The notes under the pieces were generated by a model. That model had not been told where the DNA came from. It did not search any database and saw only the letters and a list, made by a program, of their open reading frames with translations. This document shows positions 11,796 to 64,000 of a DNA stretch of 64,000 nt, piece after piece. The DNA is from a virus (Duplodnaviria > Caudoviricetes): positions 32,001 to 96,000 of IMG/VR virus record IMGVR_UViG_2867988698_000004; one strand, 5' to 3'. A program made the translations under genes and the position numbers. Every line of letters begins with the position of its first letter. Position 1 is the first letter of the stretch.

Positions 11796-11818
11796 CGGGC
11801 GCTCCCGACAGGGAGTGG

Positions 11819-13451: not shown

Positions 13452-13472
13452 GGGGAGCCTCCGTACACAAGG

Positions 13473-14076: not shown

Positions 14077-14297
14077 CGGCCTCGTAAGGGGCCGCGGGGC
14101 CTGGTACCGCAGCAGGATGGCCACCCAGCGGGTACCAGGCCCCACTCTTTTCACCGACGGCCGACAGGGTGTGATTCTCAGCCGTCAGCGTGTTGCATGG
14201 TAGGCCGGTCACCCGGAACAGTGCGGGACAACGCCAAAGAACCGCAAAGGTTGTTTGTGTCATGTGACCTTGACGCTACCGCCTACCAGAGCGGTGC

Positions 14298-42777: not shown

Positions 42778-44118
42778 TCAGTCGCCGTCCTGTTCAGCCT
42801 CCCCATGGCCTTGCTCGTGCCTATCTCCCCTGCGGTCCTGCTCGCCGTCGTCGCCGGAGTCAGGCCGGGTCTGCCACATCTGCCGCAGGTACTTCTGCAT
42901 GGCTGGGGAGTCGGGGTTCTCCAGGAGCTGCTGACGCCGCATCATCGCAACCTGCTGTACGAGATCCCTCCAGGGCATGGTCATCTCGTTGTACGCCCGT
43001 ACGCCCTCAAGCGCCTTCTTGAAGATGGAGAGGGTATGCGCGATGTCCTCCATGTCAACGGAGGCGTTCAAGTGGCCAGTCACGGCGGCAATCATGAAGC
43101 CTGCGTCCCTCAGAGCGTCACTGTCGATGCCCATGGTGAACGCCCACCCGTGCGGGGCATCTATGGCGCTGATCTCGTGGTCAGTGATGCGGTCCCGCTC
43201 ATCGGTGGTGACCAGCCCGGACACCTGAACAGGCCGGGGGGCCTGGATGGCCTGGGGCTCGTCGGCGGGCTCGGGCACCAGCAGGTCGATGGTGGCGGTG
43301 AACGTCCAGACAGTGCCGCGGTCGACGCGCCCCTGCTCCTCCACGGTGACCTTCGTGTGGTCGAACCTGACCACGGCCCCCCGACGCTCCAAAGCAGAGC
43401 CGACGCTGTCCAGGAACGCCGGCAGCACCGTGTCGATGACGTACTGACTGATCGTCTTCGTGCACAGCTCCAAGCGGCCCTGGGACAGGTCGCCGTGGAT
43501 GCCGTTCTCGGCGAGGAGATCGAGGGCGAGCCGGACCTCGCTGGGGTAGAGGTTGATCCGGTCCACGACGCCGGCGGCCTCGGCCTCCCGGAGCAGGTCC
43601 GGGTGGAACGACCTCTTGCCTTCCTTGCCGTCGCCGCAGAAGTCGCCGTCATCGGAAACCCAAACGATCCGGCGGTCGGGGTTGGCGCGGGCGGTCTCCA
43701 GGATGGTCAGCCAGTTGAGGGTGTCGCGGTAGCCATTGCCGTCCTTCTTGCAGGGCTTGCGGCGCTCGACCTGGCGCCGCACCAGCTCCAGGTGGGGCAC
43801 CGGGACGGGGTCGATGAGGGTCGCGCCGGCGGCGGCGATGGCGTCCGTGACCTCTTGGACGAGCTGTTCGGCGCGTTCCCGGAGGTCGTCGGCGGCGCGG
43901 CGGAGCGCCCTGCTCCTGCGTTCCTTGGCCAGCTCCTCGACGGCTGCGGCGTCGTCACGGTAGCGGCGGCGTAGACGGCCGGTGGCCTCCAGCAGCGATA
44001 CCTGGGGCACGCGCAGCTCGATCCCCCATGGCTCGGCCTGCCCGAGGATGATCTTCCAGGAGACGGAGTCCAGCCACGGATTCTGTACGAGGGCGTTGGC
44101 GTCCAGCAGCACTATCAC
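42778..44118 (-). CDS. PIN-domain protein (PIN_12/DUF4935-like)
   Basis: VLLDANAL, SLLE, GYRDTLNW, VSDDGDF; GGGAGGAG RBS. Confidence 0.82.
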   Translation of the reverse strand: MIVLLDANALVQNPWLDSVSWKIILGQAEPWGIELRVPQVSLLEATGRLRRRYRDDAAAVEELAKERRSRALRRAADDLRERAEQLVQEVTDAIAAAGATLIDPVPVPHLELVRRQVERRKPCKKDGNGYRDTLNWLTILETARANPDRRIVWVSDDGDFCGDGKEGKRSFHPDLLREAEAAGVVDRINLYPSEVRLALDLLAENGIHGDLSQGRLELCTKTISQYVIDTVLPAFLDSVGSALERRGAVVRFDHTKVTVEEQGRVDRGTVWTFTATIDLLVPEPADEPQAIQAPRPVQVSGLVTTDERDRITDHEISAIDAPHGWAFTMGIDSDALRDAGFMIAAVTGHLNASVDMEDIAHTLSIFKKALEGVRAYNEMTMPWRDLVQQVAMMRRQQLLENPDSPAMQKYLRQMWQTRPDSGDDGEQDRRGDRHEQGHGEAEQDGD

Positions 44119-44439: not shown

Positions 44440-47400
44440 TCAGACTCCTTCGTGGATCTCGGCCGCCAGGGAGGCGACCAGTTCGGCTCGGACCGGCTGC
44501 AGGGAGGCCTCCAGCTCGGCGATCTCCCGGCGGGCCTGCTCGCGGCGTTCCAGCTCGTCGGCCACCGCGGGGACCAGCGTGGGCATGAGCGCGGCCACTA
44601 GCTCCGGCGCCAGGGCGGCGGCCAGCCCCTCCACTCCCGCCGGCGTCCCGGCCGAGGCTCCGGCCGGTTCCTGGGTGGGGGCGCTGGAGGCGGTCAGCGC
44701 GAGGTTCGAGCGGGAGATCACCGCGCCGATCGCGGAGGCGGCCAGCGGGGTCGGGTAGCCGGGGACGGGCACCGACAGGACGGCCCGCAGGGACCAGCGG
44801 CCGTCCGCGTTCTGCCGCCAATGCCCGGAGGGCGCGCACGCCTGGAAGACGGCCCGGTCCCACTCCGACAGCCAGGGGGCGGCGGCTCCGGAGAACCACA
44901 TGCCGCGGTCGTTGGTGCCGACCGTGACCAGCCCGGCGACCGTCCGGGTGTTGTCGAACAGCGCGCGGACGCTGGGGGTGTCGGTGCCGTCGTTGTCGTG
45001 GCCGGTGTTCATGGTGAACACCCCGACCCGGATGGTCTGCCCGTCATCGAGCTGGATCCGGGACCGCAGGAAGTGCGTGGTGTCGACGTCCCCCAGGGAG
45101 TCGATGGTCAGGCACTGGCCGGAGTAGCCGTCATGGCACACCCCCTTGCGGGCGACCCAGCCGAAGATGCGGCCCTCGGGGGTGACGTGCACCGGGCCGT
45201 CGTCGGTGGGCAGCTCCTCCGGCGACGGCTCGGCGAACCATGCGGCCGGCAGCGGCGGAAGCTGCTGGAACTGCGCCCACGCCGAGGCCATCACCTCGTC
45301 CATCCCGTCCCCCTCCTCGTCCTCATCACGGTCCTCATCGCGGTCCTCGTTTTGGTCCCAGGGGGCGCGCAGGCTCGGGTCGTCGAACTCCTCGGCCAGC
45401 CGCTCGTACAGGTCCTCCACCCGGTCCCGCAGCCGCTCAACGTCCTGGTCGGGGATGTCGACGCCGCCGCGGCCGCCCTGCAGCACGTTCGCGACGGCGA
45501 ACACGCTGCGGGGGATGATGCGGAGCTGGTCGTCGTCCCACACGTCGGCGACGCCGAGCTTGTAGGCCGCCAGCGTCGCCGGGTCGGCGGACTCGTCCCG
45601 CCACAGGAACGCCCGTCCCAGCGCGTCCGGGTCCACCTCGCCATCCGGGCCGGTGGCGTACTCCAGGACGCGGGAGGCGGCAGCGTCCCCATCCCAGGGG
45701 TGGTCGCGGTCGGGGTGGATCGGCAGGTCCAGGTCCCCGCTCATGGCCGCCACCACCTCCCCCGGCCGGGCGGCGGCGGTGGTCTCCCCCTCCTCGGGGA
45801 ACGTGGCGGCGCCGGTGTAGCGGCCCGGGGAGACGCGGGTGATCCATCCGGCCTGTGCCGCGCGGGCCAGGTAGCCGCGGGCGCTGGCCACGCTCAGGCC
45901 GGTGTAGCGGGCGACGTAGGCGGCGCCGACCGGGGCCGGCGCGGAGGTCACCAGTTCCACGACGCTGCGCATGGTCTCGCCGCGCGGCCCGGCCGCTGCG
46001 GTCACCTCCTCGTCGAGGACGATGCGGGCCCGGTCGAACGCCGGCATCGCCACGAGGGTGGCGCCGCGGACGCGGGCGCGGGTGATCCGCATGACGTAGT
46101 CCCCGGCGCCCTCGCTGAACAGCACCTCACCCTCGCCGCTGTCCCGGTCCCCGGCCGCTGCGGACAGGGCGGCGGCGGGGAGTCCGGCGGCGGACAGGGC
46201 GGCGGACAGGCCGGTGGGGGTGACGTCTCCGGCCTCGCCTGTGGTCCACTCGACGGTGCGGGTGGCGCGGATGGTCCAGGTGCCGTCCGGCCGCTGCAGC
46301 ACCTGCGCGCTGGCCAGGGACGCCAGCAGCACCGGCGCCCCCTCCCCCTCCTCCTGTTGCTGTTCGTCGTGCTGGGTGGGGGTGCGGCGGTCGATGACCT
46401 CCACGTCCACGTCGTCCAGGTCCACCGACACCCCCAGCGGGGCGCCCCGCCGCAGCAGGGCGAGGGCAGCGGCTCCGGCGTCCCGGTCCGGGTACAGCAC
46501 GCCCGCGCCGGTGATGCGGGCGCCGTCGCGGCCCAAGGACTCGATCGACCCGGCGAGGACGGCGCCCTGGTGGCCGCCGAGCATCTCGTCGGCGAACTGC
46601 AGCGGCCACGGCCCCTCCGCCCAGTAGAGGGCTCCGGGGGCGAACAGGCGGCCGTCGCCGGTCTCCTCGTCCTCGAACGCCAGGGCGGTGCCGTCGGGGG
46701 TGGACCAGCGCACCGCCCCCGCCATGGCGGGCAGGTCGAGGTCGAGGCGGCCGGTGAGGGGGATGTCGGTGGCCTCGCCGGCGAACGCCACCCGCACCCG
46801 GTCGAAGGTGACGTCCCCGACCCGCTGGGCGACCTCGGCCAGCCGGGACAGGTCGGGGCTGTAGGCGAGGGTGACGTGCGGGATCCACGGCTCGTACTGT
46901 TCCGGCAGGCCGTCCGGTCCGTACTCCCCGACCGCCTCGCAGACGGCGTCGTGGACCATCGCCAGGCCGGTGCCGGACAGGCCCAGCACCAGCGCCGTCT
47001 CCTGCTCTGAGTCGCCGCCGGGGTTGAACGCGGACGCGGCGAAGGCGCGGGCCTGCACGGGCGGGTGGGTGGCGGTGTAGGCGGTGACGAGGTCGATGAG
47101 CCGGTCCCGCTCCTCGGGGGTGAAGTCGTCGCCGTTGCCGAGGTAGTAGAGGGTGGCGTGCAGCTGCTCGGGCGGCTCCCCGCCGTCGAGGGCCAGGCGG
47201 GCGAGGTCGTCGTCGCTGGGGATGAGCGCGATCATCGCCCCGCTGTAGGAGCCGGCGGCGGTCACCTCCTGGCCGTCGTCGGGTGTGGCTGCTGCGGTAT
47301 GGGCGGTACGCACGGTCCCTCGCTCCTCGTAGTGCTTGATGACCTCGGCGATCTGCTGGTCGGTCAGGTACTGGCGGCCCGCGTCGGGCGGTGGCCATGA

Positions 47401-48246
47401 GCCGTCCGCGTCGGAGATGAGCAGGACGCAGCGGCAGTTGATGACCAGGTCGGGGGGTGCGGTGGGGTCGCCGGGGCAGTCCATCGCCACACCGCCCACC
47501 GTGAACGTCTCGCCCAGGGCGACGCGCTGGCCGTCTGCGGCGAAGTGCGCGTCCCTGGTGCGGGTGTCGAGGGTGGCGAGCCAGCCTTTCACCAGCTCCA
47601 CGCCGACCTGCTCGGCCTGGGCGCGGGCGGCGGCCAGGGCGGCGCGGTTCCATGCGGCCACGGTCTCGGTTCGGGCGATGCGCGCGGCGCGGGCCTCCCC
47701 CAGCTGCACGCCCCCGGCGCGGAAGGCGTCCCGCACGCGGTCGCGTAGCTCGTTCGGGGTGTCGCCGGTGGCGATGCCGTCCGCGAGGGCCCGGCGGGCG
47801 GCGTCCCACAGGGCGTCGCCGACACCGGCGAGCCGGTTCTCCGCCTCCAGGACGTAGCGGCGGGCCAGCTCCGGGACCTCGATGGGCTCGGCGGGGGTTG
47901 CGGGGTCGGCGGGGTCGTGCGGGTCGTCCAGGTAGCGGCCGGGCAGGTCGTCCGCCCCCGCCGGTGGGGGCGTCCGCATCCACCTGTATAGGGCTTTATA
48001 GGCGGCCTCGTAGACGGCCAGGAGCGGCGCCACCACCTGTTTGATGCGGGCGGTCCACCAGTCCCGCAGCCGGCGTAGCGCGCCCGGGTCGGACGGATCA
48101 GCCGCCGCCAGGGCGGCGGCGGTGAACTCGCGTTCGAACAGCGCGGCGATCTCCTCCAGGGCGGCGGAGACCTGCCGTTCGATCATCGCCTCCAGGCCGG
48201 TCAGCGTGCGCTCGGCCGCCCGCCGCGCGGTGTCCAGCTCAGCCAC
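44440..48246 (-). CDS. MuF-like head morphogenesis / 2H phosphoesterase / capsid maturation protease fusion
   Basis: MuF (IARTE, KGWLAT.D.RTRDAH, INCRC); 2H pair HATL/HVTL; protease-like DGRLFAPGAL and GATLVAMPAF. Confidence 0.85.
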   Translation of the reverse strand: MAELDTARRAAERTLTGLEAMIERQVSAALEEIAALFEREFTAAALAAADPSDPGALRRLRDWWTARIKQVVAPLLAVYEAAYKALYRWMRTPPPAGADDLPGRYLDDPHDPADPATPAEPIEVPELARRYVLEAENRLAGVGDALWDAARRALADGIATGDTPNELRDRVRDAFRAGGVQLGEARAARIARTETVAAWNRAALAAARAQAEQVGVELVKGWLATLDTRTRDAHFAADGQRVALGETFTVGGVAMDCPGDPTAPPDLVINCRCVLLISDADGSWPPPDAGRQYLTDQQIAEVIKHYEERGTVRTAHTAAATPDDGQEVTAAGSYSGAMIALIPSDDDLARLALDGGEPPEQLHATLYYLGNGDDFTPEERDRLIDLVTAYTATHPPVQARAFAASAFNPGGDSEQETALVLGLSGTGLAMVHDAVCEAVGEYGPDGLPEQYEPWIPHVTLAYSPDLSRLAEVAQRVGDVTFDRVRVAFAGEATDIPLTGRLDLDLPAMAGAVRWSTPDGTALAFEDEETGDGRLFAPGALYWAEGPWPLQFADEMLGGHQGAVLAGSIESLGRDGARITGAGVLYPDRDAGAAALALLRRGAPLGVSVDLDDVDVEVIDRRTPTQHDEQQQEEGEGAPVLLASLASAQVLQRPDGTWTIRATRTVEWTTGEAGDVTPTGLSAALSAAGLPAAALSAAAGDRDSGEGEVLFSEGAGDYVMRITRARVRGATLVAMPAFDRARIVLDEEVTAAAGPRGETMRSVVELVTSAPAPVGAAYVARYTGLSVASARGYLARAAQAGWITRVSPGRYTGAATFPEEGETTAAARPGEVVAAMSGDLDLPIHPDRDHPWDGDAAASRVLEYATGPDGEVDPDALGRAFLWRDESADPATLAAYKLGVADVWDDDQLRIIPRSVFAVANVLQGGRGGVDIPDQDVERLRDRVEDLYERLAEEFDDPSLRAPWDQNEDRDEDRDEDEEGDGMDEVMASAWAQFQQLPPLPAAWFAEPSPEELPTDDGPVHVTPEGRIFGWVARKGVCHDGYSGQCLTIDSLGDVDTTHFLRSRIQLDDGQTIRVGVFTMNTGHDNDGTDTPSVRALFDNTRTVAGLVTVGTNDRGMWFSGAAAPWLSEWDRAVFQACAPSGHWRQNADGRWSLRAVLSVPVPGYPTPLAASAIGAVISRSNLALTASSAPTQEPAGASAGTPAGVEGLAAALAPELVAALMPTLVPAVADELERREQARREIAELEASLQPVRAELVASLAAEIHEGV

Positions 48247-53339: not shown

Positions 53340-54965
53340 CTACCGGCCGAGCGAGCGGGAGTACCGGGACGCCGCGCTCGACCCCGCCCCCGCCCCAGAG
53401 GTCTGGCGGGCCGGAGAGTGAACACGCCGGGTGACCGCCAGCAGCTCCGCGGCCAGCCCCATCACCACCGCGTCCCCCCGGTCCGGGGACCGGCCGAGCC
53501 GCGCCTGCACGTCCTCCTTCGGCTCGATCTTGATCTTCGGGGGGATGCCGGTGGTGATGCTCCAGGTCGGTGTCGTCAGATCCGCCAGCAGCAGGTCATC
53601 CGGCGGCAGCATGACCTCCGAGTCGAACGCCGGGTCCAGCAGCTCCCGCAGCCGCCAGTACCCGGCGGACCGCAGGTTGACGAACCCGTACTCCCGGTCG
53701 CGGGTGCGGGCCTGGGTCTTGGCGGAGCCGGTGTAGGCGACGACCGGAACCCCCAGCTCCCGCAGCCGGTCCACCACACCGCCGCCGACCCCGACCGAGT
53801 CCACCACCGGCACCGCCTCCTCGTCCTCCCCCAGGGCGGCCTGGACGCGGGCGGTGGTCTGCATCGTGTCCTCCCGGTCCTGGATGTCCAGCCGGGTGAT
53901 CGCCACGCCGACGCGGTGCGCCAGGACGGTGGAGTCCCCGCCCGCACGCGCCACGTCCACGCCCAGGACCCGCTTGCCGGTCAGCCGAGGGCGGCCGGCC
54001 TGATCCCAGACGTGCCAGCGCTCCACCGCCGCCTCAACCCACGCCAGCGGGATCACCGAGTCCTCATCCGAGGCGTGGAACTCCCCCAGCACACGGTTCG
54101 CGTACAGGGCGGAGTCCGCGCCCCACTGCCGGCGGCGCTGCTCCGCCCAGGTCCGGGAGATGCGCCCGGCCTCGATCGCCTCGGCGAGGGTGACGTGCCG
54201 GACCCACCAGTCCTCCAGCCCTGGGGCACGCCGGTGGATGTCGTAGAACCGGCCCGCGGGCGGCCCCGGGGTTGAGATCGCCAGCGCCAGCGCCTCCGGA
54301 TAGCCGGTCTCCCGGCCGCCGGAGAACGCGCCCTCGATCGCGTCCCAGGTGCCGTTCGGGACGATCTTCGCCTCATCGATCAGGTAGAACAGGCTGTCGG
54401 CGTGGGCGCCCTCGATCAGCTCCGGCTTGTTCGACGCCACCGCGGAGGCGGCGCCGTGGGACAGCTTGAGGTTGTAGGCCAGCAGCTCCCGGATATCGCT
54501 GAACGGCGGCCGCCCCAGCACCTCCCACTTGATGCGGCGTGCCCACTTGTGGATCTCCGGCCACAGGTACACCGACAGATGCCGCCAGGCGGAGGCGGTC
54601 GTCAGGACCTTCCAGTCCAGCCCGGCCGCCTCCCTGGTGGTCGCGAACCACAGGACCGCGATCGCCGCCACACCCGTCTTGCCGAGACCATGGGGTCCGC
54701 GGACCGCCACCCGCCGTTTGACGGGCAGCGCCCCGATGACCTCTTCCTGGTAGGAGGCCAGCGCCTGCCCGTCCGGCCAGTCGATGACGTCCCGCGCCCA
54801 CCCGACCGGGTCCCGCAGATAGCGGACGGCCCGGTGGGCGTTGCGGCGGGCCTGCTCCTGCCGCAGCCGCTCCCGCAGCTCCCGGAGCGTCTTCACGTCC
54901 CCGGCGCGGACCAGCTCCTGCACCTGGGCGCGGATGCGCTCCGGGTCAGGACTCCGGCTCGACAT
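53340..54965 (-). CDS. terL: Terminase large subunit
   Basis: GPHGLGKT Walker A, LIDEA Walker B, GVDVAR, SPDRGDA. Confidence 0.93.
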   Translation of the reverse strand: MSSRSPDPERIRAQVQELVRAGDVKTLRELRERLRQEQARRNAHRAVRYLRDPVGWARDVIDWPDGQALASYQEEVIGALPVKRRVAVRGPHGLGKTGVAAIAVLWFATTREAAGLDWKVLTTASAWRHLSVYLWPEIHKWARRIKWEVLGRPPFSDIRELLAYNLKLSHGAASAVASNKPELIEGAHADSLFYLIDEAKIVPNGTWDAIEGAFSGGRETGYPEALALAISTPGPPAGRFYDIHRRAPGLEDWWVRHVTLAEAIEAGRISRTWAEQRRRQWGADSALYANRVLGEFHASDEDSVIPLAWVEAAVERWHVWDQAGRPRLTGKRVLGVDVARAGGDSTVLAHRVGVAITRLDIQDREDTMQTTARVQAALGEDEEAVPVVDSVGVGGGVVDRLRELGVPVVAYTGSAKTQARTRDREYGFVNLRSAGYWRLRELLDPAFDSEVMLPPDDLLLADLTTPTWSITTGIPPKIKIEPKEDVQARLGRSPDRGDAVVMGLAAELLAVTRRVHSPARQTSGAGAGSSAASRYSRSLGR

Positions 54966-55404
54966 CGCCGCCGTCACCGTCACCGGCGTCGCCGTCGTTG
55001 TGGGGGCGGGACACGCCCAGCAGCTCCAGGATCTCGTCCCCGAGCTGCTGGGCCTCCACGCTCACCCTCGTCGGCGCCTCCAGCCCCTCCAGGCGGGCGC
55101 GCTGCGCCATCACCCGCAGGATCACCTCCGCCGACCGGTGGTCGCCCTTGAGCGCCGGCGCCCAGTAGGCGGCCTGCAGACGGTCCAGCCGCTGGCCCTC
55201 GATGTCGCGGAGCAGCTCGACCTCCTGGGCCTCGGCGCGCCGGTTGGCCTTGAGGGCGCGGGTGACGTCGGTGCAGGCGGCGCCGCGGGAGGCGTAGCCG
55301 AGCTGGTCGGCGATGCTCTGCCAGTCGACGCCGGCGATGCGCATCGCGATCGCCTTGCGGCGTCGCTCGGCGGTGGCCGCCTGCTGGGCTTTGGAGGCGC
55401 TCAT
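54946..55404 (-). CDS. terS: Terminase small subunit
   Basis: HTH (MRIAGVDWQSIADQLGY), RARLEGLEAP; overlaps the terL start. Confidence 0.8.
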   Translation of the reverse strand: MSASKAQQAATAERRRKAIAMRIAGVDWQSIADQLGYASRGAACTDVTRALKANRRAEAQEVELLRDIEGQRLDRLQAAYWAPALKGDHRSAEVILRVMAQRARLEGLEAPTRVSVEAQQLGDEILELLGVSRPHNDGDAGDGDGGDVEPES

Positions 55405-55476
55405 GTTTGCACGTCCCTATTGGTTCGCACGTGTCCGATTCATGCCGGTGTGGACATGACCTAGTGTGCGGGCCGT

Positions 55477-56898
55477 TCAGGCTGCGGTGATCTTGGTTTC
55501 TGTGAAGGCCAGCAGCCCCTCGGGGCCGAGTTCGCGGCCGATGCCGGAGCGTTTGAATCCGCCGATGGGGGCGTGGATGCCGGTCGGGGCGCCGTTGATA
55601 CGGACGGTTCCTGTGCGCAGGCGTGCGGCGATCTGGCGGGCCCGGTCGGGATCGCCCCAGACAGAGCCGTCGAGACCGTAGGCGGTGCCGTTGGCGTATT
55701 CGATCGCCTGTTCGATCGTGGTGTAGGGGGTGAGGGCCAGGACGGGGGCGAACACCTCCGTCTGGAAGAGGCGGGATGCGGGGTGGACGTCGGTGAAGAG
55801 GGTCGGGGCCACGTACCAGCCGGGACGGAAGAGGGGCAGGCCGCCGACCTCCAGGCGGGCGCCGTCCTCGTGGGCGGCGTGGATGTGGCGGAGGGCCTGG
55901 TCGCGCTGGTGGCGGGTGACGAGCGGGCCGATGACCGTGGCGGGGTCGGTGGGGTCACCGACCGGCAGCGAGGCGAGCAGGTCGGTCAGCTGCCGGGTGG
56001 CCTGGGCGTAGTCGCTGGTGTGGACGAGGATGCGGGTCTGGTTCGAACAGATCTGCCCGCTGTTGGCGAGGCTGGCGTCCGGGACGGTGGCGACCGCGGC
56101 GGTGACATCGGCGCCGGGCAGCAGCAGCATCGCCGATTTGCCGCCGAGTTCCAGGGAGATGCGGCGGATCGAGGTCGCGGCGATGCGGGCCAGGTGCGCG
56201 CCGACCCGGGTGGAGCCGGTGAAGGCGATCTTGTCGACGTCCGGGTGGGCGGCGAGGTGTTCGGCGACCGTGTTGTCCGCGGGCACCACGGACAGGACCC
56301 CGGGCGGCAGGTTCAGGTGTTCGAACGCCTCCGCCAGGGCGAGCGCGTCCAGGGTGGTCTGCGGGGCGGGTTTGACGATGACGGTGCAGCCGGCGACGAG
56401 CGCCGGGATGACCTTCATCAGGATCGTCTTGTGCGGCATGTTCCACGGGGTGATCACCGCCAGGACGCCGGCGGGCTCGTGGGTGAGGGTGAAGCCGTCG
56501 CGGGGCTCGGGGTTCAGCGGCGTCAGGTTCCCCGGATCGCTGTAGTAGTCGATGATCTGGCGGGGATGCTCGGTCTGCGCGGTGAACGCGGCCGGGGAGC
56601 CCATCTCCGCGGTGATCAGCCGCGCGTAGTCCGGTGCCAGCTCGGCGTAGAGCCGGGCGAGGGGGGCGAGGGCGGCGGCCCGCTCGGCGGGGGTCATCCG
56701 CGGCCAGGGGCCGGTGTCGAACGCGGTCCGGGCGGCGTGGACGGCGCGGTCGATGTCGCGGGAGGTGGCGGCCGGGCAGGACCCGACCGGTTCCTCGGTG
56801 GCGGGGTTGATGACCGTGATGCGGCCCCCGCCGGTCGCGGGGGTCCAGGTCCCGCCGATGTAGAGGTGGTCGTAGGTGAGCGTGGGGGTGCTGGACAT
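55477..56898 (-). CDS. Aldehyde dehydrogenase
   Basis: ITPWN, FTGST, LELGGKS, NSGQIC, EVFAPV, GGFKRSGIGRE. Confidence 0.95.
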   Translation of the reverse strand: MSSTPTLTYDHLYIGGTWTPATGGGRITVINPATEEPVGSCPAATSRDIDRAVHAARTAFDTGPWPRMTPAERAAALAPLARLYAELAPDYARLITAEMGSPAAFTAQTEHPRQIIDYYSDPGNLTPLNPEPRDGFTLTHEPAGVLAVITPWNMPHKTILMKVIPALVAGCTVIVKPAPQTTLDALALAEAFEHLNLPPGVLSVVPADNTVAEHLAAHPDVDKIAFTGSTRVGAHLARIAATSIRRISLELGGKSAMLLLPGADVTAAVATVPDASLANSGQICSNQTRILVHTSDYAQATRQLTDLLASLPVGDPTDPATVIGPLVTRHQRDQALRHIHAAHEDGARLEVGGLPLFRPGWYVAPTLFTDVHPASRLFQTEVFAPVLALTPYTTIEQAIEYANGTAYGLDGSVWGDPDRARQIAARLRTGTVRINGAPTGIHAPIGGFKRSGIGRELGPEGLLAFTETKITAA

Positions 56899-57401
56899 CA
56901 GGCGACCGTCCAGCCCTGGTTGAAGGTGTCGGGGGCGTGCCGCTTGATCATGTTGCCGCGGTCGGCCAGCCGCTCGACCTCCTCGTCGTCCATCTCCAGC
57001 CGACGGCCGATCTCCTCCGGCGACAGGCCCTCGGCGAGGAGGTCCGCGACGATCTCGGCCATGCCGAGGACGTGGTGGGTGCCGCGAGCGCGGTTGTGGC
57101 GGATGGTGGCCATGCGGGCGGTCGCCGGATCGGTCGGCGGCAGGACGACGACGGGAACCTTTCCATCGGTGAGGGCGTAGACCTGGCGGTCCTCGCTGAC
57201 GGTCCAGCGGTGGTAGCCGTCCACGATCTCCAGCTCCCCGTCGATCTCCCGGGCGACGATCGGCTGAGTCCAGCCGTTTTCGAGAATGCTCGTCTTTAGC
57301 AGGCGGTGCTCAGGCGGCGCCTGCCGGTTGGGATTCCAGAGATTTTTGGACAGTAGCGTCCTGTCGATCCACTGGACGTTCCACAGGGGCTGGTTTTCCA
57401 C
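56898..57401 (-). CDS. ParB/Srx-like (IbrB-type) protein
   Basis: WNPNRQAPPE..LKTSILENGWTQPIV, IVDGYHRW, ATIRHNRARG; GTG start at 57401 inferred from domain extent. Confidence 0.85.
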   Translation of the reverse strand: MENQPLWNVQWIDRTLLSKNLWNPNRQAPPEHRLLKTSILENGWTQPIVAREIDGELEIVDGYHRWTVSEDRQVYALTDGKVPVVVLPPTDPATARMATIRHNRARGTHHVLGMAEIVADLLAEGLSPEEIGRRLEMDDEEVERLADRGNMIKRHAPDTFNQGWTVA

Positions 57402-57870
57402 GCCGGGTGAGGCGCGAAAGCTGGTCTGCGAGTTCGAGTTCTCGGTCACTGTAGGGAACCCACCATCCTGGTTTGCCGCCCTTCCGGAGGCGGCCCTGGT
57501 CGTCAAGACCCATCCGCCCGACGCGAATCTCACAGAACTCCTTGATGAGAGTCCAGTGTTCCCGCTTGGTGACCGCGTACGGGAGGAGGAGGGTAGCCAT
57601 CCGCAGCACGTAGCCGGTACGCGAGATGTTGTAGCCCCACATGTCCTTGTGGTGGGCCTTGCGCTCGCGCCAGGTGTACGCGGTGGCCGTGAGCCCCATC
57701 TCCCGAAGGATCTCCACGGTCTTCACGACGGTCGGTTCATGGGTCATCTGGATTTGCACCTGGGGCGCGATGACCTGGTTGACGTTTCCCGGCCTCCTAT
57801 ACCGGCTCACGCCAACCGACCCTTCACCGTCCCAGATACCCGCAAGCCAAGCCAATTCAGTCTCTTTCAT
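57310..57870 (-). CDS. Free-standing LAGLIDADG homing endonuclease
   Basis: ELAWLAGIWDGEGSV motif, LLPYAVTK; lower GC than its neighbours. Confidence 0.88.
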   Translation of the reverse strand: MKETELAWLAGIWDGEGSVGVSRYRRPGNVNQVIAPQVQIQMTHEPTVVKTVEILREMGLTATAYTWRERKAHHKDMWGYNISRTGYVLRMATLLLPYAVTKREHWTLIKEFCEIRVGRMGLDDQGRLRKGGKPGWWVPYSDRELELADQLSRLTRRGKPAPVERPVDRQDATVQKSLESQPAGAA

Positions 57871-57929
57871 GAGCGAAAGGCTAACTCATCACACAGGGAC
57901 CTATTTAGGCTTGGGCTGTGCGCTTAATC

Positions 57930-59336
57930 TCACTCGCGCATATCTGACTCCTTGATCTCGCTGGGGATGAGGGCGTACGGGTCGGCAGGAAGCGGCCGCG
58001 GGTGGCCCAGCTCTTGGCCGGTGCCGGCGGTGAGGATCTGCTCCAGCTCGGCGGCGTAGTTCCGCCAGAGCGTCGCCTTGTCGGCGTGCATGAGCTGGTT
58101 GGACTCCTGGCGGCGTTCCTTGAAGTCACCGCGCATCGCCAGCGTGAGCAGGAACCGCCAGCTCAGCCCCGTGACCGGATGCGGGGCCGTGGGCAGAATC
58201 GGGTGGGTGGTCTTGCGGTAGTGGCGGGCGATGACGTCGCGGATCCGCTCGGCGATCTTGGCCTGGGCCTTGCCGCCGTGCTTGGACAGGTAGTGGGTGA
58301 TGAAGTCCGGCCAGGTCACCCCCTCCGGCTTGGGGGGTTTCTTGCCGTAGCCGTACAGCTCGGTGCGGGCGTACCGGTACGCCGCGCCGATGCCGGGGAC
58401 GCGCTCGGCCATCCGCGCCCACACGTCGGGGAAGCACTGGGCGTAGACGTGGATCTTCTGCAGGGGCTCCTCACCGAACGCCGGAGAGCACCGCTGCGAG
58501 GAGGGGCCGATGCCGGCCATTTCCATGAGGTCGTAGGCGCGGTTGTAGTCCCAGCCGTGCACGCGGACGGCGGCCCAGACGTCCTCGGTCCGCCAGTCGT
58601 AGATCGGGTACGCCTTCCAGAGGTTCCCGCCGTTGAACGCCGCCGCCTGCTTGCCCTGGCTGGCCAGGTCGTACTTGACGATGTAGTTGTCGACGCTGCG
58701 GACCCGGACGGCGTGGGCGCGGATCAGGGACTCCTGCGCCCGGATGCCCATCAACATGGCCGTGGTGTGCGGGGGCGGGGCGAGCAGCCCGTTGGTGTTC
58801 GGGATGGTCAGCCGCTCCTCGGGCGGCCAGAGCGGAAACCCCGGGAGCGTGGTCAGGGCCTCCGGCGGCATCGGGCGGCACCACTTCGCCTCATCCTCCG
58901 GCGCCCACGGCCACCAGTACGGATACCGGCGCGAGCAGGCGTTGCGGTGCTGGACGGGCAGGCAGTACCACTCCAGGGCGACGTCATCGCGTTGGGAGAC
59001 GCGGCGGACGTACTCCTCCGTCTCCTGCGGGATCGCCTCCTCATCGAAGAACACGACCCGCAGCGGCAGATGCCGGCGTAGGTGCGGCTCCCGGTTGGCG
59101 ACCTCCAGGGCGATGTTCAGCACGGCGGTGGAGTCCTTGCCGCCGGAGAACGCGACAGCGACGCGGTCATGGGTGTCCATGACGTAGGCCATGCGTTCGC
59201 AGGCCAGCGTGTAGACGTCGGCTCCGGCGGCGATGCGCGGCCGGTTCTGCTTGGCGATGTAGCCGCGGACATGCTCGCCGTCGAGAGGCGTGCCCTCCGG
59301 CAGCCAGCCCTCGCGGGACGTGGTGGTGTCGGTCAT
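57930..59336 (-). CDS. IbrA-like PAPS-reductase/PP-loop protein, paralog C
   Basis: FSGGKDS, DEE, WYCLP..RNACS, GIRAQES, YPIYDW, YNRAYD. Confidence 0.88.
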   Translation of the reverse strand: MTDTTTSREGWLPEGTPLDGEHVRGYIAKQNRPRIAAGADVYTLACERMAYVMDTHDRVAVAFSGGKDSTAVLNIALEVANREPHLRRHLPLRVVFFDEEAIPQETEEYVRRVSQRDDVALEWYCLPVQHRNACSRRYPYWWPWAPEDEAKWCRPMPPEALTTLPGFPLWPPEERLTIPNTNGLLAPPPHTTAMLMGIRAQESLIRAHAVRVRSVDNYIVKYDLASQGKQAAAFNGGNLWKAYPIYDWRTEDVWAAVRVHGWDYNRAYDLMEMAGIGPSSQRCSPAFGEEPLQKIHVYAQCFPDVWARMAERVPGIGAAYRYARTELYGYGKKPPKPEGVTWPDFITHYLSKHGGKAQAKIAERIRDVIARHYRKTTHPILPTAPHPVTGLSWRFLLTLAMRGDFKERRQESNQLMHADKATLWRNYAAELEQILTAGTGQELGHPRPLPADPYALIPSEIKESDMRE

Positions 59337-60730
59337 GGTGCTTCCTGGCGGAGATGCGGAGGGATGAGGGCGTACGGGTCGGCGGGGAGCGGGCGAGGGT
59401 GGCCGAGTTCGGCCGGGGTGACGCCATCGGCGAGGACCTGGGCCAGCTCGGTGGCGTAGCGGTGCCAGTAGGTGACCTCGTCGTCATCGATGAGCTGGTT
59501 CCGCTCCTGGCGGCGTTTCTTGAAGTCCCCGCGCATCGCCAGCGTGAGCAGGAACCTCCAGCTCAGCCCCGTGACCGGATGCGGGGCCGTGGGCAGGATC
59601 GGCTGGGTGGTCTTGCGGTAGTGGCGGGCGATGGCGTCGCGGATCCGCTCGGCGATGGTGGGCTGCACCTTCGGGTCGTGTTTGGACAGGAAGTGCAGGA
59701 TGAAGTCCCGCCATGCCATCCCCGCCGGCTTGTTGGGGCGGCTGTTGAACCCGTACAGCTCCGTGCGGGCGTACCGGTATGCCGCGCCGATGCCGGGGAC
59801 GCGCTCGGCCATGCGCGCCCACACGTCGGGGAAGCATTCGGCGTAGACGTGGATCTTCTGCAGCGGCTCCTCACCGAACGCCGGGGAACACCGCTGCCCG
59901 GAGACTCCGACGCCGGCCATCTCCATCAGGTCGTAGGCGCGGTTGTAGTCCCAGCCGCGGACCCGTACGGCGGCCCACACGTCGGCGGTGAGCCAGTCGT
60001 AGATCGGGTAGGCCTTCCAGAGGTTGCCGTGATCGACGGCGGCGGCCTGCCGGCCCTGGGCGGCGACGTCGTACTTGACGATGTAGTTGTCGACGGCGCG
60101 GCGGCGGACCGCCATCGCTCGGATCCGGGACTCCTGCGCGCGGATCCCCATGAGCATCGCCGTCGTGTGCGGGGGCGGGGCGAGCAGCCCGTTGGTGTTC
60201 GGGATGGTCAGCCGCTCCTCGGGCGGCCAGAGCGGGAACCCGGGCAGCGTGGTCAGGGCCTCCGGCGGCAGCGGACGGCACCATCGCTCCTGGTCCTCCG
60301 GCGCCCAGGGCCACCAGTACGGATACCGGCGCGAGCAGGCGTTGCGGTGCTGCACCGGCAGGCAGTACCACTCCAGCGCGACGTCGGGACGCTGGGCGAT
60401 ACGGCGGACGTACTCCTCGGTCTCCTGCGGGATCGCCTCCTCATCGAAATGCACCACCCGCAGCGGCAGGTGCCGCTCGAAGCGGGGGTCGCTGTGGGCG
60501 ACCTCCAGCGCGACGTTCAGCACCGCGGTGGAGTCCTTGCCGCCGGAGAATGCCACGAACACCCGGTCGTGGGTGTCCATCACGTAGGCGGTCCGCTCAC
60601 AGGCGAGGGTGTAGACGTCCGAGCCGGCGGCGACGCGCGGCAGCGTGGCCTTCAGCTCGTAGGCGTCGTCATGCCGGTCGATCGGGGTGCCCTCCGGCAC
60701 CCAGCCGTCCGGCAGAGCAGCGTCGGTCAC
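59333..60730 (-). CDS. IbrA-like PAPS-reductase/PP-loop protein, paralog B
   Basis: Same motifs; ATGA/GTGA coupling. Confidence 0.88.
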   Translation of the reverse strand: MTDAALPDGWVPEGTPIDRHDDAYELKATLPRVAAGSDVYTLACERTAYVMDTHDRVFVAFSGGKDSTAVLNVALEVAHSDPRFERHLPLRVVHFDEEAIPQETEEYVRRIAQRPDVALEWYCLPVQHRNACSRRYPYWWPWAPEDQERWCRPLPPEALTTLPGFPLWPPEERLTIPNTNGLLAPPPHTTAMLMGIRAQESRIRAMAVRRRAVDNYIVKYDVAAQGRQAAAVDHGNLWKAYPIYDWLTADVWAAVRVRGWDYNRAYDLMEMAGVGVSGQRCSPAFGEEPLQKIHVYAECFPDVWARMAERVPGIGAAYRYARTELYGFNSRPNKPAGMAWRDFILHFLSKHDPKVQPTIAERIRDAIARHYRKTTQPILPTAPHPVTGLSWRFLLTLAMRGDFKKRRQERNQLIDDDEVTYWHRYATELAQVLADGVTPAELGHPRPLPADPYALIPPHLRQEAP

Positions 60731-62115
60731 GGGCGCTCCTGGTGGGCGTACTCGGCGGGGATGAGGGCGTACGGATCGGACGGCAGCGCGCGCGGGTGGC
60801 CCAGCTCCGCGCCGGTGCCGGCGGTGAGGATCTGCGCCAGCTCCTGGGTGTACTTGCGCCAGTACGCGGCGGCGGTGGCGTCCATGAGCTGGGTGACCTC
60901 CTGGCGGCGTTTCTTGAAGTCACCGCGCATCGCCAGGTTCAGCAGGAAGTTCCAGTTCAGCCCGGTCGCCGGATGTGGGGACTTGGGGAGGATCGGATGG
61001 GTCGTCTGCCGGTAGTGGCGGGCGATGGCCTCGCGGATCCGCTCGGCGATCTGGGGCTGCGCTCGCGGGTCGTGCTTGGACAGGTAGTGGGTGATGAAGT
61101 CCGGCCAGGTCATCCCGTCCGGCTTGGGCGGCTTGGCGAGGAACCCGTACAGCTCGGTGCGGGCGTAGCGGTAGGCGGCGCCGACACCGGGCACCCGCTC
61201 GGCCATCCGCGCCCACACGTCCGGGAAGCACTGGGCGTACATGTGGAGTTTCTGCAGCGGCTCCTCACCGACCGCCGGTGAGCAGCGCTGCTGGTAGGGG
61301 GTGACGCCGGCCATTTCCATGAGGTCGTAGGCGCGGTTGTAGTCCCAGCTGTGCACCCGGGCGGCGGCCCAGACGTCCTCGGTCCGCCAGTCGTAGATCG
61401 GGTATGCCTTCCAGATGTTGCCCTGGGCGGTCAGGCCCTCCCCGTAGGGGACGATGTAGTTGTCGATGGGGCGGCGGCGGACGGCCATCGCGCGGATCCG
61501 GGACTCTTGCGCGCGGATGCCCATGAGCATCGCCGTCGTGTGGGGCGGTGGGCAGAGCGGCCCGTTGAACTGCGGGATGGACATGCGCGCGGACGGCGGC
61601 CAGACCGGGAAGGCGGGGTGGCTGGTGATCGCCTCCGGCGGGAGCGGCCGGCACCATCGCTCCTGGTCCTCCGGCGCCCAGGGCCACCAGTACGGATGGC
61701 GGCGGGAGCAGGCGTTGCGGTGCTTGACCGGTAGGCAGTACCACTCCAGGGCGACGTCGGGTCGCTGGGCGACGCGGCGGACGTACTCCTCGGTCTCGAT
61801 GGGGATGGCCTCCTCATCGAAATGCACCACCCGCAGCGGCAGGTGCCGCTCGAAGCGGGGATCGCTGTGGGCGACCTGCAGGGCGATGTTCAGCACGGCG
61901 GTGGAGTCCTTGCCGCCGGAGAAGGAGACGGCGACCCGGTCGTGGTTGTCCATCACGTAGGCGATGCGCTCACACGCCAGGGTGTAGACGTCCGCGCTGG
62001 CGGCGACGCGGGGCCGGTTGTTCTTGGCGACGTAGCCGCGGACGTGTTCCTCGCCCTGGATGACGGTGCCCTCCGGCAGCCAGCCGTCCGGCAGGGCGCT
62101 GCTGGTGTCGGTCAT
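60727..62115 (-). CDS. IbrA-like PAPS-reductase/PP-loop protein, paralog A
   Basis: Same motifs. Confidence 0.88.
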   Translation of the reverse strand: MTDTSSALPDGWLPEGTVIQGEEHVRGYVAKNNRPRVAASADVYTLACERIAYVMDNHDRVAVSFSGGKDSTAVLNIALQVAHSDPRFERHLPLRVVHFDEEAIPIETEEYVRRVAQRPDVALEWYCLPVKHRNACSRRHPYWWPWAPEDQERWCRPLPPEAITSHPAFPVWPPSARMSIPQFNGPLCPPPHTTAMLMGIRAQESRIRAMAVRRRPIDNYIVPYGEGLTAQGNIWKAYPIYDWRTEDVWAAARVHSWDYNRAYDLMEMAGVTPYQQRCSPAVGEEPLQKLHMYAQCFPDVWARMAERVPGVGAAYRYARTELYGFLAKPPKPDGMTWPDFITHYLSKHDPRAQPQIAERIREAIARHYRQTTHPILPKSPHPATGLNWNFLLNLAMRGDFKKRRQEVTQLMDATAAAYWRKYTQELAQILTAGTGAELGHPRALPSDPYALIPAEYAHQERP

Positions 62116-62699
62116 GGGTGTTCCTGGCAGATCGTGTCCTCGGGGACGGGGGCGGCGTCGGGGTGGAACCGGCGGGACGCCAGGTACAGGCCGGTCGGAT
62201 GCCGGTGCTGCCAGAGCGGCAGTCCCCGCCGCCAGACGACGAGACTCCCGTCAACGTCGAGGACGAGCAGCGCCCAGGCGGCGGTGTCCGCATCGGCGAG
62301 GGCCGCCCGGAGCGCGTGCGGCCCGTCGAGCTGCCGGCGGTGGTGGGCGTACAGCTCCGCCAGGGCGACGCTGTCCGACGCCGCGTCGGGGGTGAGGGTC
62401 CGCCAGTTGCGGACGGTGCCGTTGTGGGCGAGCCAGTGCCCGCCGGCCGCGACCGGCTGCAGGCCGGTGCGGTCGCGGTAGTCGCCGGTGGTGGCCAGGC
62501 GGGCGTGGCCGATCACCGCGCGGTCGGTCAGATCGCGCACCGCCGCCGGCGGGAGGGGCCCGAACTCGTGGCGGGTGGTGCTGGCGCTGGTGGCCCAGCC
62601 GTGCCCGTGCGGCCCCCTGGAGGCGGCCGCGGTGGCGGCCGCCTCCAGCAGGTCCGGATCGGGCCTGGCGGGGCCGAGGTAGGCGAAGATCCCGCACAT
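62112..62699 (-). CDS. Class II (Ntn) glutamine amidotransferase, stand-alone
   Basis: MCGIF N-terminus, RGPH, GHARLAT, HNG, SDS. Confidence 0.88.
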   Translation of the reverse strand: MCGIFAYLGPARPDPDLLEAAATAAASRGPHGHGWATSASTTRHEFGPLPPAAVRDLTDRAVIGHARLATTGDYRDRTGLQPVAAGGHWLAHNGTVRNWRTLTPDAASDSVALAELYAHHRRQLDGPHALRAALADADTAAWALLVLDVDGSLVVWRRGLPLWQHRHPTGLYLASRRFHPDAAPVPEDTICQEHP

Positions 62700-63487
62700 C
62701 ACTGCCTGCCGGTGCGGCGCATCCAGTCCGCGGCCGCGGGCAGGTCGGGAGCGGCGGCGCGGATGACGTCGGGGTCGATCTCCCAGACCTCCTCGAACCC
62801 GTGATCGCGGTCGCGGGTCCACTGGCGGGCGGGCCAGGAGCCGGTGCCGACCTGGTAGCCGCGGGGCCAGTCGTAGCAGGGCGGCATCGGGAGCTGTTCG
62901 CGGTCGATGAGGGCGAAGACGGCCTCGTGCGGCCAGGCCGCGAGGGGGCTGTAGCGGGTGATGCCCTCCTTGTTGGTGTAGATGTGCTGGCCCTTGGGGC
63001 CGGTGTAGTTGCCGTCCGCAGTCCGGCGGCCGAGCAGCAGCAGATCGAGGTTGTTCTGCCGGTAGTAGCGGGCCTGGCCGCGGTGGTTGACGATGCTGAA
63101 CCAGCGGGTCCCGTAGGAGCCCTGGGGGAACAGCATCTCGGGGTGCTGGGCGAGCCAGGCGAGGTCCTGGCCGGTGTTGATGACGGTGAGGCCGCCCGGC
63201 ATGTGGTCGGTGACCCAGGTCAGGAACGCCGGGAACTCCAGGTTGGAGATCGCCAGGCAGCAGTCTTCGACGCCGGCGAGCTCAGCCACATGGCCGAGGG
63301 CGATGGAGTCCTTGCCGCCGGACCAGGCGTAGGCGGCCCGCTTGCCGCGGGTCTGCGCGCGGATCGCCTCGACGGTCTGGTCGATGAGCTGGTCCAGCCG
63401 CTCGTCCGGCCACTCGGCGCGGGCCTGGGCGCGTGCCCGCCGCCAGGTCTCGGAGTCGGGGAGGGTCTGCTTACGTGGAATCGCCAC
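62699..63487 (-). CDS. Short PP-loop/PAPS-reductase-family protein
   Basis: AWSGGKDS, LGRRTADGN, SPLAAW. Confidence 0.82.
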   Translation of the reverse strand: MAIPRKQTLPDSETWRRARAQARAEWPDERLDQLIDQTVEAIRAQTRGKRAAYAWSGGKDSIALGHVAELAGVEDCCLAISNLEFPAFLTWVTDHMPGGLTVINTGQDLAWLAQHPEMLFPQGSYGTRWFSIVNHRGQARYYRQNNLDLLLLGRRTADGNYTGPKGQHIYTNKEGITRYSPLAAWPHEAVFALIDREQLPMPPCYDWPRGYQVGTGSWPARQWTRDRDHGFEEVWEIDPDVIRAAAPDLPAAADWMRRTGRQ

Positions 63488-63502
63488 GAGCGTGGTCCCC
63501 GA

Positions 63503-63934
63503 TCAGGCGAACAGCGGGAGGTCGCTGACGGTGCCGGCCCAGTCGGTGAAGGACATCCGTTCCGGGGAGTCGACCGGCTTGTGGGGGGCGCCGATGGCCA
63601 GGAGCGTGTGCCCGGCCTCTCCGGCGCCGACCGCGTGCGGAACCTGGCCGGGCACCATGTAGATGTCGCCCGGCCGGACCTGGTAGGTGCGTTCGTCGAT
63701 GCTGATGGTGCCCTCCCCCTCCAGGCACAGCAGCAGGTGGTCGCCGGGGTGGACGTGGATGGGGAACCGGGCGTGCGGCGGGACCTTGAGCAGGTCGGCG
63801 CCGAGGTGGCCGTTGGTGTGCAGGGCCAGGCCGAGGGCGTCGGCGCCGTGTACCGGGACGCCCTGCTCGGCGACCGCCAGGGTGGCGGCGCGGAGGTTGA
63901 TGATCGACAGGTCGCTGCTGGTCTGGCGGGTCAC
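63503..63934 (-). CDS. Cupin-domain protein
   Basis: PIHVHPGDH..EGEG..PGD...VPHAV. Confidence 0.88.
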   Translation of the reverse strand: MTRQTSSDLSIINLRAATLAVAEQGVPVHGADALGLALHTNGHLGADLLKVPPHARFPIHVHPGDHLLLCLEGEGTISIDERTYQVRPGDIYMVPGQVPHAVGAGEAGHTLLAIGAPHKPVDSPERMSFTDWAGTVSDLPLFA

Positions 63935-64000
63935 TGGTTTTCCTCGCTGACGGTGGACAGGTACTGCTGGCAGATGTCGGTCAGGGCCTCGGCGGCGGTC
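63931..64000 (-). CDS. Partial CDS (3' end, ...TAAEALTDICQQYLSTVSEENQ)
   Basis: Open frame ending in a GTGA overlap with the cupin gene. Confidence 0.6.
   Translation of the reverse strand, partial: TAAEALTDICQQYLSTVSEENQ

Follow-up and report, generated by a model that had tools for sequence, protein, structure and literature searches.

A ParB-fold and PP-loop enzyme cassette ahead of the terminase genes of an actinomycete provirus, with a possible role in DNA modification

The 64,000-nucleotide stretch analyzed here (the window) comprises bases 32001-96000 of a 118,999-base IMG/VR provirus record (IMGVR_UViG_2867988698_000004; G+C 72%). Immediately 5′ of its terS-like gene lies a translationally coupled run of minus-strand genes encoding four PP-loop proteins, ParB-fold partners, a glutamine amidotransferase (GATase), a small cupin and an aldehyde dehydrogenase (ALDH). 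We found that the core of this cassette is formed by two ParB-fold/PP-loop pairs ahead of the terminase, sPAPS/ParB2 and IbrA/IbrB, and that this core recurs in at least five phyla, surrounded by variable accessory enzymes. Judged by family, the cassette would supply four ATP pyrophosphatase-type enzymes, an ammonia-supplying glutaminase, an aldehyde-to-acid oxidizer and a metal-binding cupin. Modification of DNA is the best reading of this gene set that we can offer, and we hold it at a little under even confidence.

A coupled enzyme cassette upstream of the terminase genes

All eight genes listed in a preliminary description made from the DNA letters were confirmed on the minus strand, their family assignments being backed by Pfam, PHROGs and NCBIfam. 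The unit begins with ParB2, a ParB-like protein of 310 amino acids (63931-64863; phrog_723, E 2e-47), of which only the 3′ end (63931-64000) lies inside the window. It is followed by the small cupin (63503-63934, 143 amino acids; PF07883, E 1.8e-14, 53.6 bits), by sPAPS, a short PP-loop ATP pyrophosphatase of the PAPS-reductase family (62699-63487, 262 amino acids; PF01507, phrog_424, motif WSGGKDS), and by a stand-alone class-II (Ntn) GATase (62112-62699, 195 amino acids; PF13522, 37.1 bits against a cut-off of 27). Three IbrA-like paralogues come next, IbrA1 (60727-62115, 462 amino acids), IbrA2 (59333-60730, 465 amino acids) and the IbrB-proximal IbrA3 (57930-59336, 468 amino acids; phrog_2302, E 1.5e-81), each of which carries SGGKDS and passes the Pfam cut-offs of PF01507 and PF11922 (PAPS_reduct and DUF3440); the SGGKDS motif is thus intact in all four PP-loop proteins. 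The run closes with an IbrB-like ParB-fold protein (56898-57401, 167 amino acids; PF02195, 29.9 bits against a cut-off of 26.3; phrog_2159, E 3.7e-56) and the NAD(P)-dependent ALDH (55477-56898, 473 amino acids; PF00171, E 2.4e-135).

These genes had been described as one coupled unit immediately 5′ of terS, and their junctions bear this out. The stop of ParB2 overlaps the GTG start of the cupin gene (GTGA), a 15-nucleotide gap separates the cupin gene from sPAPS, and the sPAPS stop and GATase start overlap by 1 nucleotide. The GATase stop overlaps the IbrA1 start (ATGA), the IbrA1/IbrA2 and IbrA2/IbrA3 junctions read GTGA and ATGA, respectively, and the IbrB stop and ALDH start overlap by 1 nucleotide. 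An endonuclease open reading frame (ORF) is inserted at the IbrA3-IbrB junction, and 72 nucleotides separate the ALDH gene from the terS-like gene. The earlier account of gene content stands; what had to be amended were its gene starts, the endonuclease ORF that it had missed and the beginning of the unit, which lies beyond the window end. GATase starts at the ATG at 62699 (MCGIF...) and not at the first start codon of its ORF, so its cysteine is residue 2; the cupin gene starts at the GTG at 63934, overlapping the stop of the upstream ParB2 gene; and the most likely start of IbrB is the GTG at 57401.

The frames of the ALDH, the three IbrA paralogues, sPAPS and the cupin are supported by a minus-strand third-position G+C content (GC3) of 0.82-0.96, and GATase and the endonuclease ORF failed the GC3 filter. 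A consensus scan of 54000-64000 returned a single, weak terminator-like site on the minus strand, within IbrA3; a sigma-70-type promoter scan of 54-64 kb returned none and is uninformative for an actinomycete of 72% G+C. The cassette is best explained as one enzyme module of the late operon, co-transcribed with the terminase genes. Its downstream boundary is the terS-like gene (54946-55404, minus strand), named from its position before terL and matched in PHROGs only by phrog_645; homologues of the gene hold the equivalent position in relatives. terL, encoding the large terminase subunit, follows (53340-54983, minus strand; phrog_2, E 7.6e-39), with the portal gene further downstream. No near-identical DNA was found in deposited phages.

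The two ParB-fold/PP-loop pairs are conserved across phyla

Loci for comparison were gathered from IMG/VR by IbrA (12 loci) and by ALDH (2 loci), and with an sPAPS profile from bacterial contigs representing one genome per species (80 loci). ORFs were classed by jackhmmer with the proteins of the window, and merging of identical loci left 89 distinct ones. In this survey, whose sampling was anchored on sPAPS or IbrA, sPAPS, IbrA and IbrB occur together in 84 of the 89 distinct loci, with IbrB adjoining IbrA in 84 of 89, and a ParB2 homologue is present in 83 of the 84 complete cassettes. The core cassette was found in Actinomycetota, Bacillota, Deinococcota, Bacteroidota and Acidobacteriota. 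Its hosts include Streptomyces, Actinomadura, Actinoallomurus, Clostridioides, Deinococcus, Bacteroidales, one Pyrinomonadaceae metagenome-assembled genome and many Lachnospiraceae and Oscillospiraceae; many of the hosts are Clostridia of the human and mouse gut. In 45 of the 79 loci with sufficient flank, a TerL relative is encoded no more than 4 kb from IbrB, a lower bound given that only relatives of the TerL of this phage were sought. The sPAPS proteins of actinomycetes are 50-57% identical to their Bacillota/clostridial or Deinococcus counterparts. A metagenome-scale protein set holds 869 relatives of sPAPS, whereas a search of 50,697 deposited phage records gave one match to sPAPS and none to GATase; the cassette is thus frequent in prophages but almost missing from cultured phages.

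The novelty that the preliminary description had attributed to the cassette as a stand-alone system therefore needs revision: it is an enlarged form of a cassette of wide distribution, in which two ParB-like and PP-loop pairs are combined. Co-conservation of its genes in other genomes, the absence of which had been named beforehand as refuting, was found. The full set (ParB-like protein, cupin, sPAPS, GATase, IbrA, IbrB and ALDH) occurs in four further loci, from prophages or viral contigs of Streptomyces, Actinomadura and Actinoallomurus, with relatives in Streptomyces cavernae SYSU K10008, Actinomadura miaoliensis JCM 16702 and Actinoallomurus vinaceus JCM 17939 (L020-L022).

Among known systems, the nearest by gene content are the IbrA/IbrB pairs of the E. 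coli ECOR-9 island and of K-12 (YbdN/YbdM), represented by phrog_2302 and phrog_2159, in which the same PAPS_reduct and DUF3440 protein stands beside a small ParB-fold protein in a prophage context. Unlike these pairs, the present cassette has IbrA in triplicate and adds a second PP-loop/ParB pair, GATase, a cupin and an ALDH, and the comparison says little about mechanism. The IbrA proteins of the window are 27-30% identical to the deposited-phage genes annotated as IbrA (H1, H4/H5) and at most 32% identical to the other PAPS-reductase-type phage genes listed. We found no paper that gives IbrA/IbrB-type cassettes a biochemical function, and none that describes a cupin within one; as the preliminary description had supposed for the ALDH, we also found no paper that places such an enzyme in a system of this kind. 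An earlier prediction may be contained in Iyer et al. 2013 (NAR), which others cite for ParB homologues directing DNA-modification machinery.

Near the cassette, the ParB-fold proteins are ParB2, IbrB and one further ParB-like gene upstream. Among 78 homologues of IbrB, conservation of the motifs DGYHRW and HNRARG reaches 90% or more. Upstream of ParB2, the further ParB-like paralogue (phrog_723, E 1.2e-40) is accompanied by a GP88-family protein (PF17338, E 3e-58), the pair occupying 96868-99094 in G000 (window-type coordinates 64868-67093, past the window end) and 1869-4094 in L005. A ParB-like, GP88, ParB-like trio is retained in L006-L008; in L018, L019 and L020 the order is GP88, then ParB2. 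The GP88-family protein had no match in a single-sequence search of the PDB.

sPAPS and GATase as a predicted two-subunit amidotransferase

The GATase retains the residues of its family. The AsnB and GlmS profiles align from residues 42-43 of its long ORF, 17 homologues share M1, C2, G3, R67, N93, G94 and D109 without exception, and none of the 20 full-length homologues aligned lacks the cysteine nucleophile. The gene lies directly 3′ of sPAPS in 19 of the 84 cassettes and is absent from the other 65; the loci that bear it belong to Actinomycetota, Deinococcota, Bacillota, Bacteroidota and Acidobacteriota. The pairing of a GATase with a PP-loop protein noted in the preliminary description is therefore recurrent, with the stop and start codons coinciding or a few nucleotides apart in 19 loci from at least five phyla. 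From this adjacency and coupling, sPAPS and GATase are predicted to form a two-subunit enzyme.

In AsnB, GMP synthetase, NAD synthetase and the phage Gat-QueC proteins, ammonia from an Ntn-type or other glutaminase is passed to a PP-loop (SGGxDS) enzyme after adenylation of an oxygen function. The proteins described here resemble these glutamine-dependent amidotransferases in having intact GATase motifs and a PP-loop, encoded by genes coupled in 19 loci. They differ from them in that the two halves are separate and that the one with the PP-loop is a PAPS-reductase-family protein and not one of the AsnB, GuaA, NadE or QueC families. Assignment of the GATase to the fused AsnB type was rejected, as it is a stand-alone protein of 195 amino acids scoring 19.7 bits with TIGR01536 against a cut-off of 267. 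QueC and Gat-QueC were rejected as well: Pfam detected no such domain, and the PP-loop partner is PF01507 and neither QueC nor Asn_synthase. The enzymes may nonetheless operate on the same principle as the fused types.

The cupin and ALDH vary together

Both accessory enzymes that flank the core have intact motifs. The metal-binding pattern HxHxxxH...H of the cupin (H59, H61, H65 and H99) is invariant in 5 homologues, and its best PDB profile match is 9ug7_A, a 'Cupin type-2 domain-containing protein' (E 2.9e-27). The ALDH matches 460 of the 461 positions of PF00171 and contains Glu250 in ELGGKS, Cys284 in GQIC and Asn153 in PWN; none of the substrate-specific NCBIfam equivalogs reached its cut-off, the best being TIGR04284 (352 against 775). 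ALDH matches in the phage collection were set aside, being mostly host-type genes in mislabelled or unannotated records without useful context.

The small cupin and the ALDH occur in the same five of five distinct survey loci, from three actinomycete genera: the window, L018, L019 (identical to L020 of S. cavernae), L021 and L022. Gene by gene, the proteins of L018 and L019 are 46-77% identical to those of the window. Scans with the cupin profile added two loci. One of them, L108, encodes the cupin, sPAPS, GATase, two IbrA and IbrB. The other, L102, is a metagenome contig on which 9932-16217 encodes, all in one direction, a cupin, an Amidoligase_2 protein, a GNAT and HAD phosphatase protein, an ALDH, a 282-amino-acid protein, IbrA and IbrB. 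Its cupin is orthologous to that of the window (59% identity) and its ALDH, ahead of IbrA/IbrB, is non-orthologous (28% identity). The 282-amino-acid protein stands at the position of sPAPS and was rejected as an sPAPS, with 23% identity and no SGGxDS motif. A DUF932 gene lies downstream of the L102 cassette.

Other cassettes carry other enzymes in the accessory positions. The phrog_28683 protein, found in 13 cassettes, never accompanies the small cupin or the ALDH (0 of 13). In the IbrA tree, obtained by a quick IQ-TREE search, the cassettes of the cupin/ALDH type and of the phrog_28683 type are interleaved, which implies that the cupin and the ALDH were lost or gained jointly at least twice. 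The copies of this protein (241 amino acids; 11990-12715 in L006, and 12 further loci) in prophages of actinomycetes and of Deinococcus share 65-80% identity. The protein bears cupin-like HLH and PRGVSHQFN motifs; it matched no Pfam family and no PDB profile, and its Atlas leads, all below threshold (0.80-0.82), were Asp/Arg-hydroxylase and cupin clusters. As an alternative cupin it is a lead only. In L006-L008, which are close relatives, a protein with a PF01658 myo-inositol-1-phosphate-synthase domain (phrog_33138) replaces the cupin and GATase directly upstream of sPAPS (5370-7760 in L006, 6668-7777 in L007 and 7079-9187 in L008). A bicupin also occupies the accessory slot in some related cassettes.

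DNA modification as the favoured reading of the cassette

The analysis establishes the gene content, its coupling, the integrity of the catalytic motifs, the conservation of the core, the co-variation of cupin and ALDH and the fold of IbrA; from these we infer every chemical step and the DNA target of a putative pathway. The PP-loop enzymes would use ATP to adenylate an oxygen function (carboxylate, carbonyl or phosphate), either of the phage DNA itself or of a group that is later attached to it. sPAPS and the Ntn GATase would act as a split asparagine-synthetase-like amidotransferase, in which glutamine-derived ammonia displaces AMP. The ParB-fold partners would load or activate the PP-loop enzymes on double-stranded DNA, as ParB does for a thymine dioxygenase and DpdB for DpdA. 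In the actinomycete lineage the cupin would make or rearrange an aldehyde that the ALDH oxidizes to the acid to be activated, the two acting as a lineage-specific precursor pair, and the three IbrA paralogues may provide three specificities. Taken to its full extent, the proposal is of a new class of post-replicative hypermodification machinery, guided by ParB-fold proteins, driven by PP-loop enzymes and expressed together with the packaging genes, in which the donor enzymes are swappable; here the acid delivered by the cupin and ALDH would be adenylated, joined to DNA and amidated with ammonia from glutamine, and the three diverged IbrA paralogues would each place the mark in a different context. 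In this complete form it is doubtful, and we put it forward tentatively.

The analogy to characterized systems lies in the pairing of an enzyme with a ParB-fold protein. A phage ParB homologue is needed by a post-replicative thymine dioxygenase acting on double-stranded DNA, and GATases are listed within the thymidine-hypermodification machinery (PMC13229309); in another system the ParB-like ATPase DpdB assists DpdA, which inserts preQ0 into DNA (PMC12839542). Like the cassette, 5mYOX176/ParB176 and DpdA/DpdB combine a small ParB-fold gene with an adjacent enzyme gene in clusters that also contain GATases and other tailoring enzymes (PMC13229309, PMC12839542). Unlike 5mYOX176 and DpdA, the partners here are PP-loop ATP pyrophosphatases rather than dioxygenases or transglycosylases. 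The arrangement of swappable tailoring enzymes around a fixed core likewise resembles that of known DNA-hypermodification clusters.

Several observations weigh against DNA modification. No result presented here demonstrates a DNA substrate. No N6_N4 methyltransferase was detected in the provirus by a search whose control worked, and a search for TET/JBP proteins (PF12851) yielded nothing in the provirus but nothing in any control genome either, and is uninformative; a pre-installed handle such as 5-hydroxymethyluracil (5hmU) is not indicated in the provirus. The phenotype reported for IbrA/IbrB is regulatory: according to Sandt et al. 2002 they reportedly activate prophage eib genes in E. coli ECOR-9, to our knowledge the only experimental data on these proteins. 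The ALDH and cupin are absent from 78 of the 84 cassettes, which marks them as accessories, the 19 kb of L108 contain a cupin but no ALDH, and the ALDH descends from ordinary host-type ALDHs. The AlphaFold2 model of the phrog_28683 protein, the candidate alternative cupin, is poor (predicted local distance difference test score, pLDDT, 59), and its best Foldseek matches are cupins at a non-significant E of 0.019 or more. By analogy with other members of their fold, the ParB-fold partners could also be enzymes acting on metabolites.

This last point leads to a different account, which we consider rather unlikely, namely that the cassette serves to synthesize or break down a small molecule or a free nucleotide rather than to mark DNA, perhaps in order to counter a host defence signal or to rebuild a depleted cofactor. 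The ParB-fold proteins would then be kinases or nucleotidases dependent on nucleoside triphosphates, the PP-loop proteins adenylating ligases or amidotransferases, and the cupin and ALDH further steps of the same pathway. The ParB-CTPase fold does include the free-serine kinase SerK and sulfiredoxin and binds ATP, GTP or CTP (PMC12704722), and ParB domains can work as nucleotidases (PMC5512222). The solved enzymes structurally nearest to IbrA use FMN, sulfate or APS/PAPS, and the accessories (ALDH, cupin, the PF01658-like protein, amidoligase, GNAT/HAD) are ordinary metabolite enzymes. Set against this are the constant place of the cassette, which opens the packaging operon throughout many phyla, the direct experimental precedent for ParB-fold partners of DNA-modifying enzymes, and a PADLOC result limited to weak similarity to DndC and BrxP.

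Alternatively, the core alone (sPAPS, ParB2, IbrA, IbrB and perhaps GATase) may be the system, with the cupin and ALDH as unrelated morons at its edges; this is unlikely in our judgement. Besides being missing from most cassettes, the two genes lie 6.6 kb apart at the margins of the core, the cupin of L108 is found without an ALDH, and hundreds of ordinary actinobacterial ALDHs share about 50% identity with the ALDH described here. More precisely, the cassette ALDHs form a small clade with 52-74% identity, to which hundreds of ordinary actinobacterial ALDHs are 47-50% identical; in a FastTree phylogeny, read without support values, L022 falls near ordinary ALDHs and L102 far outside. On our reading the ALDH probably came from an actinomycete host and has stayed in the cassette ever since, and a second ALDH was apparently recruited independently beside the cupin in L102. 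This history argues that the two enzymes cooperate with each other and with the rest of the cassette. Their start/stop coupling to core genes, their co-occurrence in five of five loci from three genera and their joint loss where phrog_28683 appears, on two separate branches of the IbrA tree, also speak against unrelated morons.

IbrA is triplicated in this phage

IbrA is present as one copy in 80 of the 84 cassettes, as two in 3 and as three only in the window; within the survey the triplication is unique to this phage. The other copies are 77% identical to the first in amino acids, with nucleotide identities of 82-84%. All family-invariant residues are retained in the three paralogues, and pairwise ratios of nonsynonymous to synonymous divergence (dN/dS) are 0.37-0.43 at a dS of about 0.39. 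In the quick IQ-TREE search, IbrA3 and the copies next to IbrB in L006, L007 and L008 came out as orthologues (SH-aLRT 97), and the upstream copies of L006 and L007 formed a second group (SH-aLRT 99). Since the copies group by position across phages, the duplication must be older than these phages and the copies have been maintained; the triplication is old. Divergence among the paralogues is concentrated in the N-terminal 30 residues and at residues ~151-180, 211-235, 331-360 and 411-430.

The AlphaFold2 model of IbrA3 has a mean pLDDT of 81. With Foldseek, the N-terminal ~240 residues resemble FMN adenylyltransferase (FAD synthase), APS/PAPS reductases and CysD (E 2.5e-6 to 4e-5), and the helical C-terminal half has no match. 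Single-sequence PDB searches with IbrA, sPAPS and IbrB gave no matches, and profile searches of the PDB gave distant PP-loop relatives only.

The features of these proteins bear on the view that IbrA/IbrB-type proteins regulate late expression or packaging, for example by ParB-like binding near pac or cos, the additional enzymes being incidental. The location of the cassette directly upstream of terS/terL would suit such a function, as would the reported activation of eib genes by the ECOR-9 IbrAB island. We nonetheless regard it as improbable: the strictly conserved catalytic motifs of four PP-loop proteins, GATase and ALDH argue for enzymes, the IbrA paralogues have been retained under purifying selection, and the accessories are metabolic and variable.

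Relation to phosphorothioation and sulfate assimilation

A thio transfer of the Dnd/Ssp type, which the preliminary description had entertained, did not hold up. In such a scheme IbrA or sPAPS would be the equivalent of DndC/SspD and IbrB that of DndB, and a weak local similarity to DndC exists (PADLOC E 1.6e-7 to 8.9e-9; TIGR03183, 25-26 bits). The DGxHR motif of IbrB also resembles the DGQHR motif of DndB. The PADLOC matches to DndC are partial, however, and the cut-off of TIGR03183 is 290.4 bits. No DndA, DndD or DndE was detected by PADLOC among the nine cassette proteins scanned, and the presence of a glutamine amidotransferase points to transfer of nitrogen rather than sulfur. In the Dnd and Ssp systems a PP-loop enzyme is likewise paired with a ParB-superfamily protein (DndC/DndB; SspD/SspE), but DndC has a three-cysteine 4Fe-4S site and a cysteine dyad (PMC10853773), whereas IbrA has a single family-invariant cysteine, C125 (in sets of 22 and 87 sequences), and sPAPS none. 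Unlike Dnd/Ssp, therefore, the cassette wants the cysteines of DndC and has a nitrogen donor in place of a sulfur donor, and we consider phosphorothioation very improbable.

A role as auxiliary metabolic genes for host sulfate assimilation, with a true PAPS reductase, can practically be dismissed: the automatic name 'PAPS reductase/FAD synthetase' and a prophage survey that classes phrog_424 and phrog_2302 genes as 'host metabolism' (PMC11318856) suggest it, but NF002537, the model for CysH, gives 19 bits where its cut-off is 154, the fold is shared but sPAPS has no conserved cysteine to serve as catalytic nucleophile, and the pairing with ParB-fold genes is obligate.

Implications for phage biology

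A core cassette of the packaging operon is thus present in at least five phyla and is routinely annotated as sulfur metabolism. Its actinomycete variant is the one richest in recognizable chemistry, combining an ammonia donor, an aldehyde oxidizer, a metal enzyme and three paralogues, and is the version most likely to reveal the function of the family; the culture-collection strains that carry the full cassette make the question accessible to direct experiment. If the cassette does mark DNA, it would represent a new enzyme class for phage DNA modification, with relevance to restriction evasion, sequencing artefacts and enzyme tools.

Neighbouring genes

The ORF inserted at the IbrA3-IbrB junction (57310-57870, minus strand, 186 amino acids) encodes a free-standing LAGLIDADG_3/Hom_end protein (PF14528, E 1.7e-6; PF05204) and overlaps the likely start of IbrB by 92 nucleotides. 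A counterpart with 72% identity occupies the same junction in L019/L020, and none is present in L018, L021 or L022; the G+C content around the ORF (56-58 kb) is lower, at 0.677. It looks like a homing endonuclease gene targeting the IbrA3-IbrB intergenic site, and is an insertion that stands outside the pathway.

Two further genes were noted downstream, both on the minus strand. A 446-amino-acid ORF with an N-terminal PIN_12 domain (42778-44118; E 1.8e-18) lies among structural genes. A 1268-amino-acid ORF (44440-48246) joins a phage Mu F-like head-morphogenesis domain (PF04233) to a 2′,5′ RNA ligase/LigT-type 2H phosphoesterase domain (PF13563) and may encode a virion-delivered effector fusion.

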